Below are positions 7,440-64,000 of a stretch of DNA of 64,000 nucleotides, in pieces. A program made the position numbers and the translations under genes. This DNA is from a virus (taxonomy: Duplodnaviria; Caudoviricetes), in the IMG/VR virus record IMGVR_UViG_3300037780_000034, positions 160,001-224,000 of that record; one strand, 5' to 3'. Under the pieces are notes generated by a model that saw nothing but the letters and a program-made list of their open reading frames with translations, was not told the origin of the DNA and ran no database searches. Every line of letters starts with the position of its first letter. The stretch's first letter is position 1.

Positions 7440-7946
7440 GTGAACAAACGTTTTAAGATAATTATTATTGGTTATGGAAGACACGGTAAAGACACAGTAT
7501 GTGATATTTTAAAAGAAAAATATAATTACAACTTTATGAGCAGTAGCGAATTTTGTGCAGAAATTGTAGTATATCCAAAATTAAAAGATATTTACAATTA
7601 TAATTCTGTAAAAGAATGCTACGAAGACAGACATAATCATAGAAAAGAATGGTTTGATTTGATAATATCGTATAATAATACTGATTTATCAAAATTAGGA
7701 AAAGAAATATTTTCTCAATATGACATATACTGTGGGCTAAGAAGAAAAGAAGAATTGATTTCACTTAAAGAAAACAATGTATGTGATTATATTTTTTGGG
7801 TAGATGCATCAAAAAGACTACCACCAGAAGACAATAGTTCTTGCACAGTAACACCGGAAATGGCAGATTATATAATAGACAACAATAGTGATTTAGACAA
7901 TTTATATAAAAATGTAGAATATGTTATGAAACAAATATGTTATTGA
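7440..7946 (+). CDS. P-loop nucleotide kinase (dNMP-kinase-like)
   Basis: IIIIGYGRHGKDT P-loop; GTG start with AGGAG SD. Confidence 0.7.
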   Translation: MNKRFKIIIIGYGRHGKDTVCDILKEKYNYNFMSSSEFCAEIVVYPKLKDIYNYNSVKECYEDRHNHRKEWFDLIISYNNTDLSKLGKEIFSQYDIYCGLRRKEELISLKENNVCDYIFWVDASKRLPPEDNSSCTVTPEMADYIIDNNSDLDNLYKNVEYVMKQICY

Positions 7947-8176
7947 AGTCCACTAAGTTGTTTTATTCTTTCTAAATCATTTTCTTTTGATTTATTAATA
8001 GAGCCATCATAAATTTCTTTATAATCTTTCATAGTAATAGGATGCATTTTACTAATTTTAGTAGCTATTTCTGCGATATAATGTAATTCTGCATCTTCTT
8101 TAACTTCTTCACGTGCCAATTCTAATAATCTTAAAAATGTAGGAACGTCTATAACTATTTTATCAATCTTATCCAT
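7940..8176 (-). CDS. Small late protein (possible head-internal protein)
   Basis: AGGAG SD, upstream TATAAATA late promoter, C-terminal RIKQLSGL motif. Confidence 0.7.
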   Translation of the reverse strand: MDKIDKIVIDVPTFLRLLELAREEVKEDAELHYIAEIATKISKMHPITMKDYKEIYDGSINKSKENDLERIKQLSGLQ

Positions 8177-8204
8177 CTTATTTCTCCTAATATATTATTA
8201 TATT

Positions 8205-8212
8205 TATTTATA
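8205..8212 (-). promoter_or_regulatory. T4-type late promoter TATAAATA
   Basis: Exact TATAAATA on the - strand 29 nt upstream of ORF 7940-8176. Confidence 0.65.
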
Positions 8213-8226
8213 ATACGATTTATCAG

Positions 8227-8255
8227 TTGACAACGTTATAGGTTTGATATATAGT
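8227..8255 (+). promoter_or_regulatory. Sigma70-like promoter of the topoisomerase operon
   Basis: TTGACA-N17-TATAGT. Confidence 0.8.
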
Positions 8256-8299
8256 AGTGCTAACCATAAAAACAAAATACTAGGAGTCAGTTACAAACA

Positions 8300-10129
8300 A
8301 TGACAGAAAATTTTAAAATATTATCACCGCGTGACCACTCAAGATTGAGAATTGGCATGTATATGGGTTCTGCATCTTTAGAAAAAACAGAACGATTTCT
8401 ACTTGGAAAATGGAAAACAGTAGAATATGTTCCTGCTTTAAATAAAATGATTGATGAAATCATTGATAATTCAATAGATGAAGCTATTAGAACAAACTTT
8501 CAATTTTCAAACAAAATAGATGTTTCAATTGAAGGTGATAAAATAACTGTTACAGACAATGGTAGAGGAATACCACAAGACAATGTAACAGATACTACTA
8601 CTGGTGAAACTATTTTAAGACCCGTTGCGGCTTGGACAAGAACTAACGCAGGAACAAGCTTTACCGACGACAGAACAACGGTAGGAGCAAATGGGGTAGG
8701 TAGCGCGGTAACAAACTACCTAAGCATAGAGTTCTATGGAGAAACTTGGCGTGATGGAAACCTTGTCATAGTAGAGTGTTTTGACGGATCAAATACAATC
8801 AATACAAAATTGAAAAAAAGGATAGGAAGTGGAACAAAAGTTTCATTTATTCCAGACTTTAGTTTATTTGGTGTTAACTCATTATCAGAAGTAGATACAA
8901 TCGCACTAGTTGAAGATCGTATTGCAAGCCTTCAAATGGCATTTCCAGAAATTGCATTTAGCTTTAATAAGAAAAAAGTTCAAGAAAACAAAATAAAAAA
9001 GTATGCAGAACTTTTTACTGAAAATGCTAATTCATCAATAATTTACTCACAAACAGATACAGTATCTTTATTCATTGTTTCAAGTGAAGATGGATTTCGT
9101 TCTAATGGATATGTTAACGGAGTAAACACACGACTAGGTGGTTCATATATTGATTTTGTTATAAATGGAATAACAGAAGAATTATCTGTTATGATTAAGA
9201 AAAAGTATAAAATAGAAGTAAACAAAAGCGTAATAAAAAATGGATTAACTTTTGTATCATTTGCAAGAAATTTTAAAAATCCAAAATTCGATTCACAAAC
9301 AAAAGAAAGATTGACTAATACGCAATCAGAAGTAAAAGATCATTGGGAAAAATCTGGAATAAATGATTTTAACTACTTTGCAAAAAAGATAATGGCATCC
9401 AATGACATTATTGAACCAATCATTGATGCACAATTAGCAAAAAAACTTGCAGCAGATAAAAGAGCAGCAACATTAGCACAAAAGAAACTAAAAAAAGTAA
9501 AGGTTGCTAAACACATTGCAGCAAACAATAATAAAGCTACCTTGTTCTTATGTGAGGGCGATTCTGCATTGGGTTCATTTTTGAAAGTTCGTGATCCTTC
9601 CAAAGCAGGTGGTTATCCTTTGCGTGGTGTCATTTTAAATACTTGGGATATGAAACCATCTGATATATTAAAAAACAAAGAATTAAGCGAATTAATTTCA
9701 GTTCTTGGATTAGACATAACTGATCCGGATAGTGTTGATGATATGAATTACGCAAATATTGCAACACTTACCGACTCCGACCATGACGGAATTGGACATA
9801 TTGCACCATTATTGCTTGCATTTTTCTATAAATTTTGGCCTAAGCTATTTATTCAAAAGAAAGTTCATATTACCCGAACACCAATATTGATTTCAACTAA
9901 TAATAAAGAAACCAAATGGTTTTATGATTATGTCACTGCAAACACATTTAAAGAAAATTCAAGTGGATATCATCATAGATACATCAAAGGTCTTGCATCC
10001 TTAACAACGGAAGAGTATGATGATATCATAAATAAGCCGGTTTTGGATACAATAATAATAAATGAAGAGAACTGGTTTGAAGTGATGTTTGGAAAAGAAT
10101 CAACATTAAGAAAAGAATTTTTGGTATAA
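8300..10129 (+). CDS. Type II DNA topoisomerase large subunit (T4 gp39+gp60 fused, GyrB-like)
   Basis: GHKL motifs EIIDNSIDE, DNGRGIP, GANGVGS; TOPRIM EGDSA, PLRG, DSDHDG; YIKGL. Confidence 0.95.
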   Translation: MTENFKILSPRDHSRLRIGMYMGSASLEKTERFLLGKWKTVEYVPALNKMIDEIIDNSIDEAIRTNFQFSNKIDVSIEGDKITVTDNGRGIPQDNVTDTTTGETILRPVAAWTRTNAGTSFTDDRTTVGANGVGSAVTNYLSIEFYGETWRDGNLVIVECFDGSNTINTKLKKRIGSGTKVSFIPDFSLFGVNSLSEVDTIALVEDRIASLQMAFPEIAFSFNKKKVQENKIKKYAELFTENANSSIIYSQTDTVSLFIVSSEDGFRSNGYVNGVNTRLGGSYIDFVINGITEELSVMIKKKYKIEVNKSVIKNGLTFVSFARNFKNPKFDSQTKERLTNTQSEVKDHWEKSGINDFNYFAKKIMASNDIIEPIIDAQLAKKLAADKRAATLAQKKLKKVKVAKHIAANNNKATLFLCEGDSALGSFLKVRDPSKAGGYPLRGVILNTWDMKPSDILKNKELSELISVLGLDITDPDSVDDMNYANIATLTDSDHDGIGHIAPLLLAFFYKFWPKLFIQKKVHITRTPILISTNNKETKWFYDYVTANTFKENSSGYHHRYIKGLASLTTEEYDDIINKPVLDTIIINEENWFEVMFGKESTLRKEFLV

Positions 10130-10140
10130 TAGGAAAAATA

Positions 10141-11454
10141 ATGAAAAGTAAAACATATACAATTCTTGATATTGCAAAAAATGAATGGCGCGAATTTGCA
10201 ATGTATACTATTGAAAACCGTGCAATTCCCAGTATGATTGACGGTTTAAAACCATCACAGCGTATGTATTTATACAGTTCGTTAAAAAATTCTGCAAAAG
10301 ACTTTAGGAAAGTTAGTGCAATTGCTGGTGTTGTTAGTGATTATGGATATGCTCACGGTGAAACCAGTGTTTCTTCTACTGGTCAACTAATGGCAGCAGA
10401 ATGGAATAACAATTTGTGCATCATTGAAGGTCGGGGAAGCTTTGGAACTAGGCTTATTCAAGAAGCAGGCGCACCACGATATGTTTACACTCGTGTTCAT
10501 AAAAACTTTTATAATTATGTAAAAGATTTAGAGTTATCACCTACTCACCCCGATCCAGAGCATGAACCCCCACGATTTTATATTCCTATAATTCCACTGG
10601 TCCTTGTAAATGGTGCAAAAGGAATTGCTACTGGATTTGCAACAAATATTCTTCCAAGACATATCAATGATGTAAAAAAAGCTTGTATTGAATATATTAA
10701 AACTAAAAATATAAAAAACAAAATTCCTGTTTCGTTCCCTCAATTTACGGGAACAACTGAGTATGATGCTTCAAATAATAAGTTTATATGCAATGGTGTC
10801 TTTAAAAGAATTGGCAAAACCAGATTAGTTATAACTGATGTTCCATATGGATATGATCGTGAAACTTATGTAAAGGTTTTAGATACCCTTGAAGAAAATA
10901 ATATAATCGTATCATATGAAGATAAATGTTCTTCAAAAGGCTTTGAATTTGATGTAAAATTAAAAAACCAAACTGGTGAATGGTCAGATGAAAAGATTTT
11001 AAAAGAATTTAAATTATCTAAAACACATTCTGAAAACATTACTGTAATTGATCAAGATTCAAAATTAAAAGAATATTCTGATGAAAGAGAACTTATTAAG
11101 GATTTTTGCGATTATCGTATGAACATTTTGCAAAAACGAATTGATAAAAACTTGGAACAATGTAAAGAAGAAATTCGTTGGTTAACTGTTAAAAAAGAAT
11201 TTATTATCGCTGTTCTTGAAAATAAAATACAATTCAAAAACAAGAAAAAAGATGAAATAGAAAAATTAATAACAAAACATACTTCTGCAACTGACAAAGA
11301 TTTTGATAGACTTTTCAGGATAGTTATGCTATCATTGACAAGTGAACAAGTAAACAAGTTAGAAACAGATATAGAAAATATCAAAAATGAAATGCTTTTT
11401 TGGAACTCAACTACTCCAACAGATCAATTTATTTTTGATCTAAATAATATATAA
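10141..11454 (+). CDS. Type II DNA topoisomerase medium subunit (T4 gp52, GyrA-like)
   Basis: RAIPSMIDGLKPSQR, YAHGE, PRY catalytic Tyr, GIATGFATNILP. Confidence 0.95.
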   Translation: MKSKTYTILDIAKNEWREFAMYTIENRAIPSMIDGLKPSQRMYLYSSLKNSAKDFRKVSAIAGVVSDYGYAHGETSVSSTGQLMAAEWNNNLCIIEGRGSFGTRLIQEAGAPRYVYTRVHKNFYNYVKDLELSPTHPDPEHEPPRFYIPIIPLVLVNGAKGIATGFATNILPRHINDVKKACIEYIKTKNIKNKIPVSFPQFTGTTEYDASNNKFICNGVFKRIGKTRLVITDVPYGYDRETYVKVLDTLEENNIIVSYEDKCSSKGFEFDVKLKNQTGEWSDEKILKEFKLSKTHSENITVIDQDSKLKEYSDERELIKDFCDYRMNILQKRIDKNLEQCKEEIRWLTVKKEFIIAVLENKIQFKNKKKDEIEKLITKHTSATDKDFDRLFRIVMLSLTSEQVNKLETDIENIKNEMLFWNSTTPTDQFIFDLNNI

Positions 11455-16970: not shown

Positions 16971-17189
16971 ATGAAACTAAACATTGAAATTGACTGCACA
17001 CCAGAAGAACTTCAAGAACTATTTATTCCAGGTGAAAAACAAACTGAATTCTTGACAAAATTTGTAAATTCACTAAGTGAACAAATGCAGGAAAATGTAT
17101 ACAAAAATTATCCAGATTTTATGAATGATATGTTATCTACTATTCAAAAAAATCAAGAACAATTTTTCAAAAATTTTAATAAAAACTAA
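16971..17189 (+). CDS. Small protein resembling the DUF6489 family
   Basis: MKLNIEIDCTPEE N-terminus recalled from alphaproteobacterial DUF6489 proteins (not searched). Confidence 0.5.
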   Translation: MKLNIEIDCTPEELQELFIPGEKQTEFLTKFVNSLSEQMQENVYKNYPDFMNDMLSTIQKNQEQFFKNFNKN

Positions 17190-18102: not shown

Positions 18103-18402
18103 ATGTTTGAAACTGAAATACAAAAAACCGAACTATTGAATTACTTAAAAGAAGGCAATGTGAAAATTCAATTTAAGAAAGTTAATGGAGAAATTCGTGA
18201 AATGAATTGCACATTAAATGAAAATGTTGTTAATGGAGGAAATTTGATAGAATCTTCAAAGACATCTAAAAAGAAAAACCCAGATGTCATTGCAGTATGG
18301 GATATTGAAATGAACGGCTGGCGCAGTATGCGTTGGGAAAACATTATAAAGGTAGATATATATGAACAATTTGAAACAACTAACTTGGGAAGCACATCAT
18401 AA
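18103..18402 (+). CDS. SH3/WYL_2-like (DUF2693-like) phage protein
   Basis: FKKVNGEIREMNCTL...VWDIEMNGWRSMRWENI; GGAG SD. Confidence 0.65.
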   Translation: MFETEIQKTELLNYLKEGNVKIQFKKVNGEIREMNCTLNENVVNGGNLIESSKTSKKKNPDVIAVWDIEMNGWRSMRWENIIKVDIYEQFETTNLGSTS

Positions 18403-18889
18403 TGCCGAAAGACAGCAATTTGCAAAAACATTACTAAGTGGAAAAATTACTCCACAACTGTATTACAAATATCTTTATAATCAATATCATATTTATATGG
18501 CCCTTGAAGAAAAACTGGATATACCAGAAATAGAAGATGTAAAAAGACTTACAAAAATAAAAGAAGATATTAAAGAATTAGAAGAATTGTATGATTTAAA
18601 AAATACAGATCAATTGTGTAGTTCAACCATTGAATATATGAAATATGTATCAGTATTAGATAAATCAAAAGTTATTTCGCATATATATGTTAGACATTTT
18701 GGAGATATGTATGGTGGTCAAATTATAAAAAAACGTATTCCAGGAAGTGGAAAAATGTATGATTTTGATAATGTTGAAAATTTAAAAACAATAATTAGAA
18801 ATATGTTAGATGATACTATGGCAGACGAAGCTAAGGTTTGTTTTGATTTTGCAACAAAATTATTTCAGGAATTATCAACAAATGAGTGA
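18362..18889 (+). CDS. hemO: Heme oxygenase (phage HemO/Ho1-like)
   Basis: LKQLTWEAHHNAE proximal His, HIYVRHFGDMYGGQII distal helix, EAKVCF. Confidence 0.92.
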   Translation: MNNLKQLTWEAHHNAERQQFAKTLLSGKITPQLYYKYLYNQYHIYMALEEKLDIPEIEDVKRLTKIKEDIKELEELYDLKNTDQLCSSTIEYMKYVSVLDKSKVISHIYVRHFGDMYGGQIIKKRIPGSGKMYDFDNVENLKTIIRNMLDDTMADEAKVCFDFATKLFQELSTNE

Positions 18890-19574
18890 AGTATGGAATA
18901 ACTTAATTAACATTCAAGATTTCTTAATAACTCAATTTGATAAATCTGGGACAGAAATACAAGAAGAAGGAATGGAAATATATAATAAAAACGGTTGGAT
19001 AAATCGTGTGTGGACAAGTAATAGTTATAGACGTGCACATATTGATGTAGTTGATGCTCGTAATTCTAAAGGACTATGGATGATGCACTGTTGTGTATTT
19101 CCTCATTTAGAAAATAATGGTCCAATATTTGGATTTGATGTAATTGCTGGAAAAAATAAAATGACAGGAGCATTTTTAGATTTTTCACCAACTGTTGAAA
19201 AAAATCACATAATGATTGAAGAACTTGGACATTATGTTTCTAACTTAAATTGGAAAAAAGAAAGAGAATTACCAGATTGGGCAAAAGCTATATTCAGTAA
19301 TCATATGGTTGCAGCAGGAAACATATCTAACATTGATGAAATAACACAAGTAACTATAATGGTAAATGATATGATAACCTTTTATCTTGATGATATAGAA
19401 AAATACAACAATCTATGTTCAGCAGAAGAATCAATATTAAGTCAGAATAATTATGCCTATTATCAAAAACAAAATCCACATACCCCAAAAACTATGACAG
19501 CTTTGGGCCTAGATGAAATTGAAGTAAAAAACTTTATAGAAAATTGTTTGTTTCCAAAAATAAAATCACAATAA
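18882..19574 (+). CDS. pcyX: Ferredoxin-dependent bilin reductase, PcyX/PcyA-like
   Basis: RRAHIDVVD, WMMHCCVFP, PIFGFDVIAG, QNPHT; D55/H69/D86 from the ATG at 18882; overlaps the hemO stop. Confidence 0.85.
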   Translation: MSEVWNNLINIQDFLITQFDKSGTEIQEEGMEIYNKNGWINRVWTSNSYRRAHIDVVDARNSKGLWMMHCCVFPHLENNGPIFGFDVIAGKNKMTGAFLDFSPTVEKNHIMIEELGHYVSNLNWKKERELPDWAKAIFSNHMVAAGNISNIDEITQVTIMVNDMITFYLDDIEKYNNLCSAEESILSQNNYAYYQKQNPHTPKTMTALGLDEIEVKNFIENCLFPKIKSQ

Positions 19575-19791: not shown

Positions 19792-20259
19792 ATGTCTAAA
19801 TCTGCATATAACAAATATCTGAAAGTAAATGAAAAGTATTATGAAATGTCTGAAAATCTTGTCCTTAAAAATCTTAAGTTATCCATTATGGGCAAACTTA
19901 CAGAAAGCAAAAAAGACAAATATAATCAAAAAAATGTCGATATTGCATACAAGTGGAAAGATGCAGTTGACAACATCAACATAAAATATAACGAATATTT
20001 TGATTATCCTGAAGAACTTGTATCTATGTTAGAAGAAGCTGGATTTTATGCTGACGAAGACGAGTATGAAGATACGACACAAACGTATGTTCATGCACCT
20101 GTTGAACGTTATGATCCAACACCAGTTATCATTGAACGGTATACCGCACCAGAACCACAACGTAAAAAAAGTAGTGCCCTTGTGAATGCGGCTGGTCTTG
20201 CTGCAATAACAGTTGGTTCTTACTATGCTGGAAAAAGGCTTGCAAAGGCTCTGCTTTAA
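19792..20259 (+). CDS. Late protein with C-terminal hydrophobic/basic tail
   Basis: Late promoter, AAGGA SD; LTE/LEE motifs; tail ALVNAAGLAAITVGSYYAGKRLAKALL. Confidence 0.65.
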   Translation: MSKSAYNKYLKVNEKYYEMSENLVLKNLKLSIMGKLTESKKDKYNQKNVDIAYKWKDAVDNINIKYNEYFDYPEELVSMLEEAGFYADEDEYEDTTQTYVHAPVERYDPTPVIIERYTAPEPQRKKSSALVNAAGLAAITVGSYYAGKRLAKALL

Positions 20260-20831
20260 TGAATAAAGTAATATTAACAGATTGTGATGGTGTTCTTTTA
20301 AATTGGGAAAGTCAATTTCATAAATGGATGAATGATCGTGGTTATAACCAAACAAAAAGTGGATTTTATGAAATCCACGATGTTTATGATATGGCAGAAG
20401 ATCGTGCTATCCGGTATATTGAAGAATTTAACACAAGTTCTTATGTAATTGACTTACCACCATTAAAAAATTCAGTTGAAGGGTTAAAACGGTTAACTGA
20501 AAATGGGTATAAATTTGTTGTTATAACGAGTATAGGCGATAATCCATATACAAAAAAATTAAGAACAATAAATTTAGAAACTCTTTTTGGAAAAGATACA
20601 TTTATAGACATTATATGTCTTTCTGAAAAAATTAGTAAAAAATCAGAACTAGAAAAATATAAAGATAGTGGATTGTATTGGATTGAAGATTTACCTAAAA
20701 ATGCAAGTTTAGGTGCAGATTTAGGATTAAAACCAATATTACTAACTCATCATTATAATCAATATGATTGTAGTGACCATAGATTAATTAGAACAAATGA
20801 TTGGAATGAAATTTGTAATATTATAATATAA
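20259..20831 (+). CDS. HAD-family 5'(3')-nucleotidase-like protein (T4 30.2-like)
   Basis: ILTDCDGVLLNW, VITS, WIED motifs. Confidence 0.8.
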   Translation: MNKVILTDCDGVLLNWESQFHKWMNDRGYNQTKSGFYEIHDVYDMAEDRAIRYIEEFNTSSYVIDLPPLKNSVEGLKRLTENGYKFVVITSIGDNPYTKKLRTINLETLFGKDTFIDIICLSEKISKKSELEKYKDSGLYWIEDLPKNASLGADLGLKPILLTHHYNQYDCSDHRLIRTNDWNEICNIII

Positions 20832-20868: not shown

Positions 20869-21615
20869 TTACTTTTCATCACCATAAATACGAAGAACGT
20901 CTCTTACTGTAGGATGACGTTCAACATCATTACGTGAAAATTCAACAACTCCCATTCTGGAACTATTATGATTTTGTAGTAAATCTAAAAAGTCTTTTAG
21001 TCCATTTTCATCAAATGTTCTATCGTGCTGTTTTAAGTCTCCAGTAACAATTATTCTACTGTTTTCACCTAACCTAGTTAAAATCATTTTCATTTGGTTA
21101 GGTGTGCAGTTTTGTGCTTCATCAAAAAGAATATATGCATTCTTGAAAGTTCTTCCACGCATGTATGCAAGTGGTGCTACCTCTATTATATTTTCTTTTA
21201 TCATAGCTTCTATTTCTATAGGAGAATAATATTCTTCTATAACATCAAATATAGGACGTGTCCAAGGGGCCATTTTTTCTACCAGATTTCCTGGTAAAAA
21301 CCCGTGTTGTTCATCTACGCTAACTGCAGGACGAGTAACTACTATTTTTTCACATTCGCCATTTTTCAATGCACGAATAGCGGCCAATACGGCTATCATA
21401 GTTTTACCTGTTCCTGCTGGTCCTATTGCAAACACCAAATCTATTTTATTATTATCTAGTAATTCAATGTAATCTTCTTGTTTAATGTTTTTTGGAAGAA
21501 TAACTACATTTTTTTTACGATTTTTATAGTTTTGGAAGTCTACAACTTGATGTGATATTGTTCCAACATTTTGCGGAACTGTATTTTTTGTTTTTCTAGC
21601 TCTATGCTTTGTCAC
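20869..21615 (-). CDS. phoH: PhoH-like ATPase
   Basis: GPAGTGKT, VVTRPAV, GFLPG, YMRGRTF, DEAQN, GDLKQHD; GTG start 21615 follows an AAGGAG SD. Confidence 0.93.
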   Translation of the reverse strand: MTKHRARKTKNTVPQNVGTISHQVVDFQNYKNRKKNVVILPKNIKQEDYIELLDNNKIDLVFAIGPAGTGKTMIAVLAAIRALKNGECEKIVVTRPAVSVDEQHGFLPGNLVEKMAPWTRPIFDVIEEYYSPIEIEAMIKENIIEVAPLAYMRGRTFKNAYILFDEAQNCTPNQMKMILTRLGENSRIIVTGDLKQHDRTFDENGLKDFLDLLQNHNSSRMGVVEFSRNDVERHPTVRDVLRIYGDEK

Positions 21616-21711
21616 TATGTGATCTCCTTTTAAAAAGGCTGGTTCCAAGTCGCACATGTATTTACATAAGTAATGTAAATATGTCCAGTTTAGCCTATAT
21701 TTTTGAAAAAA

Positions 21712-62112: not shown

Positions 62113-63999
62113 TTACTCCTGTAATGCCAATATGTAAGGTGTCATTATTCCATATAAACTTCTACGGAAAACACGGCCTTCAATTGTTCCTCTTGCTCTA
62201 TTTATAGTGAAATCAGTTCCTATTCTAAAATCTCCGCGTTGATCAGTTCCTGTAAAATAAACTTTTCCGCCATTTTGTTCTAATACTTGATTTTCTACGA
62301 TTGCTTCACCGCCCAAATATGGAAGTGAAGTATTAATGTCAATTCCTGCTCCTACCCATTCAAAAGTATGACTTGAAGCAGTAATTAAACTATATTGATG
62401 AAAGTTTACATTGTCGCCAGCATTGTATGTTTCTGTTGCAGCTTCTTCTAACGTAACAGTAACTGTATATCCGTTTTCTAAAAGTTCAATTACTATATCA
62501 TATAGTGCATCTAGTCTATCTTGTTGTGTGCTGTTAGATGCTGGTAAATTTGTAACTTGTGATACAGTATTGTTAAGTGGAGTTACTAAAGTATTTACTA
62601 ATATATCACGTGATATTGTTTTCAAATAATCAAACATATCAGAAACTTCTGGAACATCAGCTAAATCTACTTCCATAAATCCGCCTGTATAAAATTCATC
62701 AGCAGCATCGGCTGTTTCTTTATTTGCAAAATATAATATATCATATATTAGTGCATTGACTATATATTCTATATTTTCACTATATTCTACAGGATCGTAT
62801 ACAAAACTTGGATATGTAGTATCCAAATAGGCCAATCCTTCTGCTACAATAAAATTTCTATTTGCTATTAATATGTCTTTTGCATTTACAACAAATGCGT
62901 TAACCGTTTCTGGATTAGTGTATATTGGTGCAACTGCGGCTTGTTTTCCATTTTCTAATATGTTCAATATGATATTAAAGTTTTGTGCAATACGGCTTGT
63001 AACCGTAGTTGATCCATTAAACAAAGATAATACTCTTGCTTTCAAAAATTCAATTGCATCTATTGTTTCTGTTAATTGAAAATCTATAACGCCTTCAGCA
63101 GTATTTTTATAATAACTTAAACCTGCTACTGTTGAAAGATAAGTTGAACCAAATACCATATCATCTGCTATAGAATTAATTATTATCCCAACATCACGAG
63201 AACATAAAAACTGATTAAAAACTAATTCGGGATATGTGTTTACTATATATTGTATAGTTTCTGCTTTAAATAAATCTAGATTTTCTAAAATAGTATCTCT
63301 TGCATCTTGTAATGTGGTTGATTGTGTTGTATATGATGGAGAAAATATTTCTGTTCCACCAATAGACAAACTACTTGTTTCAAATACCGTGTAAAAGTTT
63401 GAATCATTTGCAAACCCTACTGCATCGCCTATAGTTGGCTTTCTGTTAATATTGTTTAATGTAAAAATATTAACTGCATCTTGTGTTACTACTTTTGCTG
63501 TATACATTGGTGAACTTACACCATCACTTGCAAGAGCGTAATTACCAAAAGATGAGTTAGAGTTTGTTAATGAACAAAAACCACCATCTTCGCACAAAAT
63601 TGCTTTATCACAACATATTGTAAACACAGAAACTAATTGAGTGTTTCCACGGTTCAACATATGAATACCAATTCCGCCTTGATTGTATTGAGTAAAGGCA
63701 TCTACCACCATTGATCTTAAACCAGATGCGTGATTTCCATCAACGCGCATACCTGTTCCAGTAGTAGTAATGCTTGAACAGTTTTGAACATATGGACTTG
63801 TTGTTATTATACCAGCACTGCCATCTGGAGGAAATGCAATTGCAGCAGAGGGAGAAACGTGATTTCTAAATGTTACATTTGCAAAATAAACTGCATTATT
63901 AACCCAAAATATGTCTTGATCTTTATTAAGAGGAACTATATTTGTAGAACGCAAACTATCTCCAACGATAGAAACATTTTTAGGAACTACTACTGGATT
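62113..63999 (-). CDS. Large virion/tail protein, 5'-truncated by the window end (pectin-lyase-like beta-helix region)
   Basis: Frame is open to the edge (NPVVVPKNVSIVGDSLRST); SPYVQNCSSIT, SMVVDAFTQYNQGGIG, SNSSFGNY. Confidence 0.75.
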   Translation of the reverse strand, partial: NPVVVPKNVSIVGDSLRSTNIVPLNKDQDIFWVNNAVYFANVTFRNHVSPSAAIAFPPDGSAGIITTSPYVQNCSSITTTGTGMRVDGNHASGLRSMVVDAFTQYNQGGIGIHMLNRGNTQLVSVFTICCDKAILCEDGGFCSLTNSNSSFGNYALASDGVSSPMYTAKVVTQDAVNIFTLNNINRKPTIGDAVGFANDSNFYTVFETSSLSIGGTEIFSPSYTTQSTTLQDARDTILENLDLFKAETIQYIVNTYPELVFNQFLCSRDVGIIINSIADDMVFGSTYLSTVAGLSYYKNTAEGVIDFQLTETIDAIEFLKARVLSLFNGSTTVTSRIAQNFNIILNILENGKQAAVAPIYTNPETVNAFVVNAKDILIANRNFIVAEGLAYLDTTYPSFVYDPVEYSENIEYIVNALIYDILYFANKETADAADEFYTGGFMEVDLADVPEVSDMFDYLKTISRDILVNTLVTPLNNTVSQVTNLPASNSTQQDRLDALYDIVIELLENGYTVTVTLEEAATETYNAGDNVNFHQYSLITASSHTFEWVGAGIDINTSLPYLGGEAIVENQVLEQNGGKVYFTGTDQRGDFRIGTDFTINRARGTIEGRVFRRSLYGIMTPYILALQE

Positions 64000-64000
64000 A

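Follow-up and report, generated by a model that had tools for sequence, protein, structure and literature searches.

The genome of a jumbo phage was found to encode a 5-aminolevulinate synthase (AlaS), a short heme oxygenase (HemO) and a bilin reductase of PcyX type, together with two tail-fibre-type proteins that carry domains predicted to have the phycobiliprotein fold. It may well be that these form one chain, running from heme through phycoerythrobilin (PEB) to the fibre domains, in which the enzyme activities, the attachment of the bilin and the location in the virion are all predictions. Why phages would need phycobilins and an orphan CpeT lyase, especially in hosts without phycobilisomes, has been posed as an open question (PMC3037559, PMC11480375). 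Phage domains of the phycobiliprotein fold with intact attachment motifs provide a concrete candidate bilin substrate and, if this is true, the virus particles would be coloured and might respond to light.

The window, which is the whole stretch of 64,000 nucleotides that was analysed, lies in a linear viral contig of 317,722 bp (G000) with a CheckV completeness of 85%. The initial annotation had spoken of a full jumbo-phage context; the contig is indeed of the Rak2/PA5oct-like jumbo phage type, but being linear and 85% complete it is not the full genome. The closest major capsid protein is that of Sinorhizobium phage Phosso (71%), followed by those of Vibrio phage 2.275.O and of PA5oct/GAP32-type jumbo myophages. 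Cyanophage photosynthesis genes had been said to be lacking from the window; psbA/psbD and hli are undetected across the entire 85%-complete contig. The capsid match and AlaS hint at a plausible host among the Alphaproteobacteria. A 72-aa ORF (window 16971-17189, plus strand) matches no Pfam or NCBIfam family at threshold and is a possible host clue; its N-terminus is reminiscent of the alphaproteobacterial DUF6489 family. Two MAG contigs with pcyX (3-9 kb) are short and probably misbinned phage DNA, and were not used for host assignment.

The bilin genes of the window are as follows.

18362..18889, plus strand: hemO, a short phage-type heme oxygenase of 175 aa (Pfam PF01126 Heme_oxygenase, E 8.6e-18, above cut-off)
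18882..19574, plus strand: pcyX, a ferredoxin-dependent bilin reductase of PcyX type, 230 aa (Pfam Fe_bilin_red, E 4.7e-20, above cut-off)

Both ORFs are where they had been described, coupled by an overlap of 8 nt (ATGAGTGA). This coupling is not due to chance, since hemO homologues are present at 79 of 84 pcyX loci. A longer pcyX ORF from the ATG at 18810 was rejected, as the homologues begin at the Met of 18882. In HemO the proximal His12 and the distal-helix residues Arg111, Gly114, Asp115, Gly118 and Gly119 are intact in a PDB alignment to HO-1/HO-2, and they are invariant or nearly so across the 79 phage homologues, so that the protein has both the proximal His and the distal helix Gly-Asp-x-x-Gly-Gly of the HO-1 type. 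For both genes GC3 deviates by less than one SD from the mean of the genome, thus there is no sign of their recent transfer. A promoter scan gave no excess over shuffled sequences. As part of the tentative chain outlined above, the pair would be a functional HemO-PcyX cassette.

The residues Asp55, His69 and Asp86 of the reductase, counted from the ATG at 18882, are present as the initial annotation had it and are invariant in 120/120 aligned top homologues. They align with the same residues of PcyX_EBK42635 (5OWG) and have the same spacing as its Asp72, His86 and Asp103 (Table 2 of PMC13446030). At the position of PcyA Glu76 the enzyme therefore has Asp, with the His88 and Asp105 equivalents retained, which is the residue pattern of PcyX, while all three cyanophage PcyA rows have Glu there. 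The rule given in the initial annotation, by which PcyX has Asp in place of Glu76 and makes PEB, is found in the literature (PMC13446030). Met67 and His200 of the reductase are common to all PcyX rows and are in no PcyA row. The best match among solved structures is 5OWG (E 7.2e-63), with PcyA next (E 1.2e-13), and in cultured phages the identity is 46% to the PcyX of pelagiphage Mosig and 23-34% (local) to cyanophage PcyA. The phylogeny with PcyA, PebS and PcyX that had been proposed as a check puts the query within the PcyX-type rows (98/91) and separate from PcyA (99/96). The AU test does not reject a topology in which the query joins PcyA (p 0.14), a test weakened by long outgroup branches; the PcyX call therefore leans on identity and residues as well. 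Taken together, identity, diagnostic residues and tree placement support assignment to the PcyX type, the phage PEB synthases of the AX clade.

It is very improbable that the reductase is instead PcyA-like and makes phycocyanobilin (PCB), for which the CB_2 enzyme of a freshwater phage is the precedent (PMC11480375) and the AU result leaves room. The PCB product of CB_2 has been ascribed to its missing Asp55 (PMC11480375). As Asp55 is present here, PEB is the expected product, and Met67, His200 and the best tree also argue against PCB. Close homology to assayed enzymes makes it very probable that PEB is the product. PcyX is a slow enzyme (PMC13197396), which counts against the chain as a whole. 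Residue 99 of the reductase (window 19176-19178) is Leu, where 118/120 homologues and 5OWG have His and a few relatives have Phe or Ile.

Taken by itself, the cassette is ordinary. Its homologues number in the thousands, with 5,400 matches in one search, and phage hemO-pcyX has been described (Ledermann et al. 2016, 2018, as cited in PMC11480375 and PMC13446030). The initial annotation gave oceanic phages as the source, which understated the literature, as the cassette has been published from freshwater phages too and together with alaS (PMC11480375). Gene order, overlap, Asp/His/Asp spacing and the short HemO are shared with the known phage pairs (EBK42635, 5OWG; Pelagibacter phage Mosig EXVC030M). 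Unlike Mosig, which is a T4-like pelagiphage, the carrier here is a Rak2/PA5oct-like jumbo phage; its reductase belongs to a separate PcyX subclade and has the Leu99, and its genome has phycobiliprotein-fold fibre domains. Sets of hemO-pcyA/X-alaS, split forms included, are also already published (PMC11480375). The present genome resembles those aquatic phages, CB_2 among them, in which the hemO-pcyA/X plus valaS cassette is broken (Wegner et al. 2024, PMC11480375), in having all three genes with alaS separate, but differs from CB_2 in the 67 kb that separate alaS and in its PcyX-type enzyme. New in this work are the presence of the complete set within a single genome, the concordance with cpeT, the correlation with adsorption, and the counterexamples.

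The alaS gene is intact (G000:110803-112020, plus strand; L001:5804-7021; TIGR01821 567 bits, cut-off 338.55) and is upstream of hemO-pcyX. It is also found in 3/7 pcyX-bearing contigs tested (G003, G004 and G006); the homologue at G003:91575-92783 is interrupted by one internal TAA stop. In the window the cassette is among host-takeover genes and is flanked by a WYL_2 gene and phoH, an arrangement shared with its nearest relatives. The phoH gene (window 20869-21657) is on the minus strand, inverted inside a plus-strand block, and likewise in relatives L006 and L007. Elsewhere the cassette is usually in an rpS21-hsp20-clpS host-takeover module, following clpS in most relatives (clpS near pcyX at 66/84 related loci). 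G000 has an rpS21, IMPDH-like, hsp20 and clpS module at 76986-79252 (L003:8987-11253) from which the cassette is absent, so that the hemO-pcyX pair has moved in this subclade. A sample selected by clpS comprised only 4 loci, with the cassette nearby in 0/4. Clustering of the neighbours at the 84 pcyX loci tied no third gene to the cassette beyond that module, and the 56-aa ORF that follows pcyX has no family match, an ORF of about that size being present at the corresponding place in the nearest relatives only. In about 30 of the 84 loci (L012 and relatives, ~7800-11000) a curli-assembly-like block (CsgF/CsgG-like) with a FecR-like gene is downstream, as judged by eye. In the complete 208-kb phage G004, pcyX and hemO are 13 kb apart and do not overlap (L042, L366; G004:189591-190154 and 203322-203711).

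By homology to assayed enzymes, HemO would open host heme to biliverdin IX-alpha with the release of iron, and PcyX would reduce biliverdin by way of 15,16-DHBV to PEB with four electrons from host ferredoxin. The phage AlaS would push precursor into host heme synthesis. A search of the rest of the genome for ferredoxin, lyases or bilin-binding proteins had been suggested, and it was productive for the last of these, with phycobiliprotein-fold domains in two virion-type proteins, but not for ferredoxin or a lyase. Genome-wide searches of the 85%-complete contig detected no Fer2 ferredoxin, flavodoxin, CpeT or PHY domain, and a motif scan of it for Fe-S or heme-c proteins gave no convincing candidate. 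The predicted destination of the bilin is the five Cys-x-Arg-Asp domains of the two proteins.

62113..64000, minus strand: 3' part of the gene for P0123 (whole gene at genome 222113-224467), a 784-aa tail-fibre-type protein, with its start 467 nt outside the window (PHROGs tail fibre families)
62884..63339, minus strand: P0123 globin-fold domain 1, aa 377-528, Cys-x-Arg-Asp kept, Cys422 codon at 63202-63204 (Pfam PF00502 E 0.017)
62515..62910, minus strand: P0123 globin-fold domain 2, aa 520-651, Cys-x-Arg-Asp lost (profile match E 1.2e-21)
genome 267418-270903 (L092:2419-5904), plus strand: P0122, a fibre protein of 1161 aa whose four CxRD globin repeats alternate in an A/B pattern (PHROGs tail fibre)

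A profile search of the genome identified six repeats of ~150 aa, five of which keep the motif; in a motif scan it occurs four times in P0122 and once in P0123. The AF2 model of a single repeat has a pLDDT of 96.8. Compared with 48,161 chains, its top 8 matches are phycobiliproteins (Z 14.1-11.6; VIA), with other globins at 11.1 or below, and the match to allophycocyanin 8or7 has Z 14.1 and an rmsd of 2.1 over 117 aligned residues (VIA). With Foldseek the top 50 rows are all phycobiliprotein entries, none reaching E 0.001, and an ESM Atlas search gave no usable match. The model of P0123 (mean pLDDT 67, ~85-95 over the globin part) is a beta-helix scaffold carrying two inserted globin domains. 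Over its residues ~380-510 the matches are to allophycocyanin, phycoerythrin and ApcE, with Z 14-16 (VIA), the predicted model fitting ApcE with Z 15.0 and an rmsd of 2.1 over 117 aligned residues; over residues ~97-300 they are to pectin-lyase-like beta-helices, with Z 8-10 (VIA). The fibre repeats thus have the globin fold of phycobiliproteins in predicted models. Related cyanophage fibres, those of P-SSM2 and S-CAM9 among them, match the scaffold and not the globin insert, therefore the globin domain is a module.

The repeat Cys aligns in register with the chromophore Cys of phycocyanin alpha. In 150 repeats with a mean identity of 24%, the Cys is conserved in 142, the Arg in 146 and the Asp in 149, and 448 of 487 cysteines (92%) in a set of 489 repeats are within the Cys-x-Arg-Asp motif. 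The repeats are below the curated PF00502 cut-off of 22.2 (E 0.011-0.18, 12-16 bits; 0 matches in the genome-wide scan) and are therefore classed in this work as phycobiliprotein-like rather than as phycobiliproteins; PF00502 matches 25 of the 150 homologous repeats, with a best E of 3.9e-5. The predicted fold, the motif in register and a genome with heme oxygenase and a ferredoxin-dependent bilin reductase (FDBR) are shared with phycobiliproteins (PF00502) and with BBAG-1/3 (PMC10151467). Unlike both, the repeats are tandem domains inserted in beta-helix tail-fibre proteins, their genes are not clustered with those of the bilin enzymes (43 and 88 kb from the cassette), and bilin binding is predicted only. 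They would lack the N-terminal X/Y pairing helices, since the structural matches start at about residue 33-35 of the phycobiliproteins. No paper on phage fibres with phycobiliprotein domains was found in a search whose coverage took in little of the subscription literature.

In the preferred reading, PEB would become thioether-linked to the fibre cysteines during assembly. As no cpeT was found, attachment would probably be autocatalytic, or by an unrecognised lyase; BBAG globins with CXRD bind bilin without a lyase (PMC10151467). The purpose of a pigmented fibre might be light-gated adsorption, photoprotection or fibre stabilisation. Upstream of P0122 there are two T4-type late-promoter motifs (TATAAATA), at 141 and 40 nt. 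In the complete pcyX phage G001, a stand-alone protein of ~325 aa (264223-265227, plus strand; L420:17223-18227) combines a CxRD globin-like domain at its N-terminus (PF00502 E 0.06) with a domain without an assigned family, and has no homologue in G000.

The bilin might instead act on a photoreceptor or regulator of the host (a bacteriophytochrome, a BBAG globin, or a BchJ/GUN4-like protein), altering light signalling or tetrapyrrole flux. The idea has been raised (PMC11480375), and the hemO-pcyA-alaS of Bradyrhizobium ORS278 adjoins a phytochrome gene (PMC11480375), yet it is unlikely here. The phage itself has no detected phytochrome domain. Phytochrome adducts with PEB are not known to photoconvert, so only a blocking role would fit.

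Of 50,697 phage records, 119-120 have a tblastn match to the repeats, and these are cyanophages and one marine virus only. Phosso and 2.275.O have neither the repeats (profile search) nor the reductase. The repeats are in 7/8 long pcyX-bearing contigs, including 3/3 that are at least 90% complete, the exception being 42% complete, a co-occurrence that is confounded by common ancestry and habitat. Mosig has hemO-pcyX and zero repeats even on exhaustive search, and in the complete genomes of P-SSM2, S-SSM6a and S-SSM7, which have pebS and heme oxygenase, the repeats are undetected. Conversely, the reductase is in 0/18 fragments selected by their repeats (18-71% complete), and PcyX and HemO queries found no reductase in 12 larger ones; the usual distance of 50-150 kb between cassette and fibre genes matters for such incomplete fragments. 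In an empty-site comparison, the fragments G010, G015 and G017 do not include the usual host-takeover module. A serious candidate for repeats without the cassette is G015 (270 kb, 71% complete), with 16 CxRD repeats and no cassette in that part. Reductase and repeats are therefore linked only loosely, and fibres cannot be the sole use of the bilin enzymes.

It is possible, if doubtful, that PEB is made for metabolism and not for fibres. HemO would free iron, PcyX would clear biliverdin, whose accumulation inhibits HemO as its product, or drain electrons from ferredoxin, and the repeats would be structural or bind host bilin. Iron supply has been discussed (PMC11480375), the usual place of the cassette is a host-takeover module, and Mosig, P-SSM2 and S-SSM7 retain the enzymes with the repeats missing; the Mosig cassette also comes after several 2OG-Fe(II) oxygenase genes. 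However, HemO alone suffices for iron release, leaving the strict conservation of a four-electron reductase unexplained, and the degradation of heme made through AlaS would yield zero net iron. A non-cyanobacterial host would also have no obvious source of phycobilin for five conserved attachment sites.

Evidence that bears on fibre attachment comes from the cyanomyophages. Both repeats and cpeT are present in P-HM1, P-HM2, P-RSM4, P-RSM6, P-SSM4 (where the repeat match is weak, E 5e-4), S-PM2, Syn1 and Syn19, and both are undetected in P-SSM2, S-SSM6a, S-SSM7 and S-SM2. This concordance in 12/12 (Fisher's exact p 1/495, or 1/165 with the two Lipsvirus records taken as one) is from a hand-picked set of non-independent kin, partly chosen from the cpeT row of PMC3037559. 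In pcyX phages tested, cpeT was undetected. In S-PM2 (LN828717:154417-167723; cpeT 154417-154926, 1.9 kb to the first repeat) and in Syn1 (GU071105:19950-26288; cpeT 19950-20462, 1.3 kb to the repeat), cpeT immediately precedes a giant fibre gene that bears repeats. Tentatively, aquatic myophages may build biliprotein tail fibres, this phage by encoding AlaS, HemO and PcyX along with the apoproteins, and cyanomyophages likewise with CpeT and with bilins of host or phage origin.

Adsorption in the dark occurs with P-SSM2 but with neither P-HM1 nor P-HM2, a difference for which the authors allow a host-side cause (bioRxiv 10.1101/167650). Among these three phages only, the repeats are present in P-HM1 and P-HM2 and absent from P-SSM2, consistent with a fibre pigment that could gate adsorption by light.
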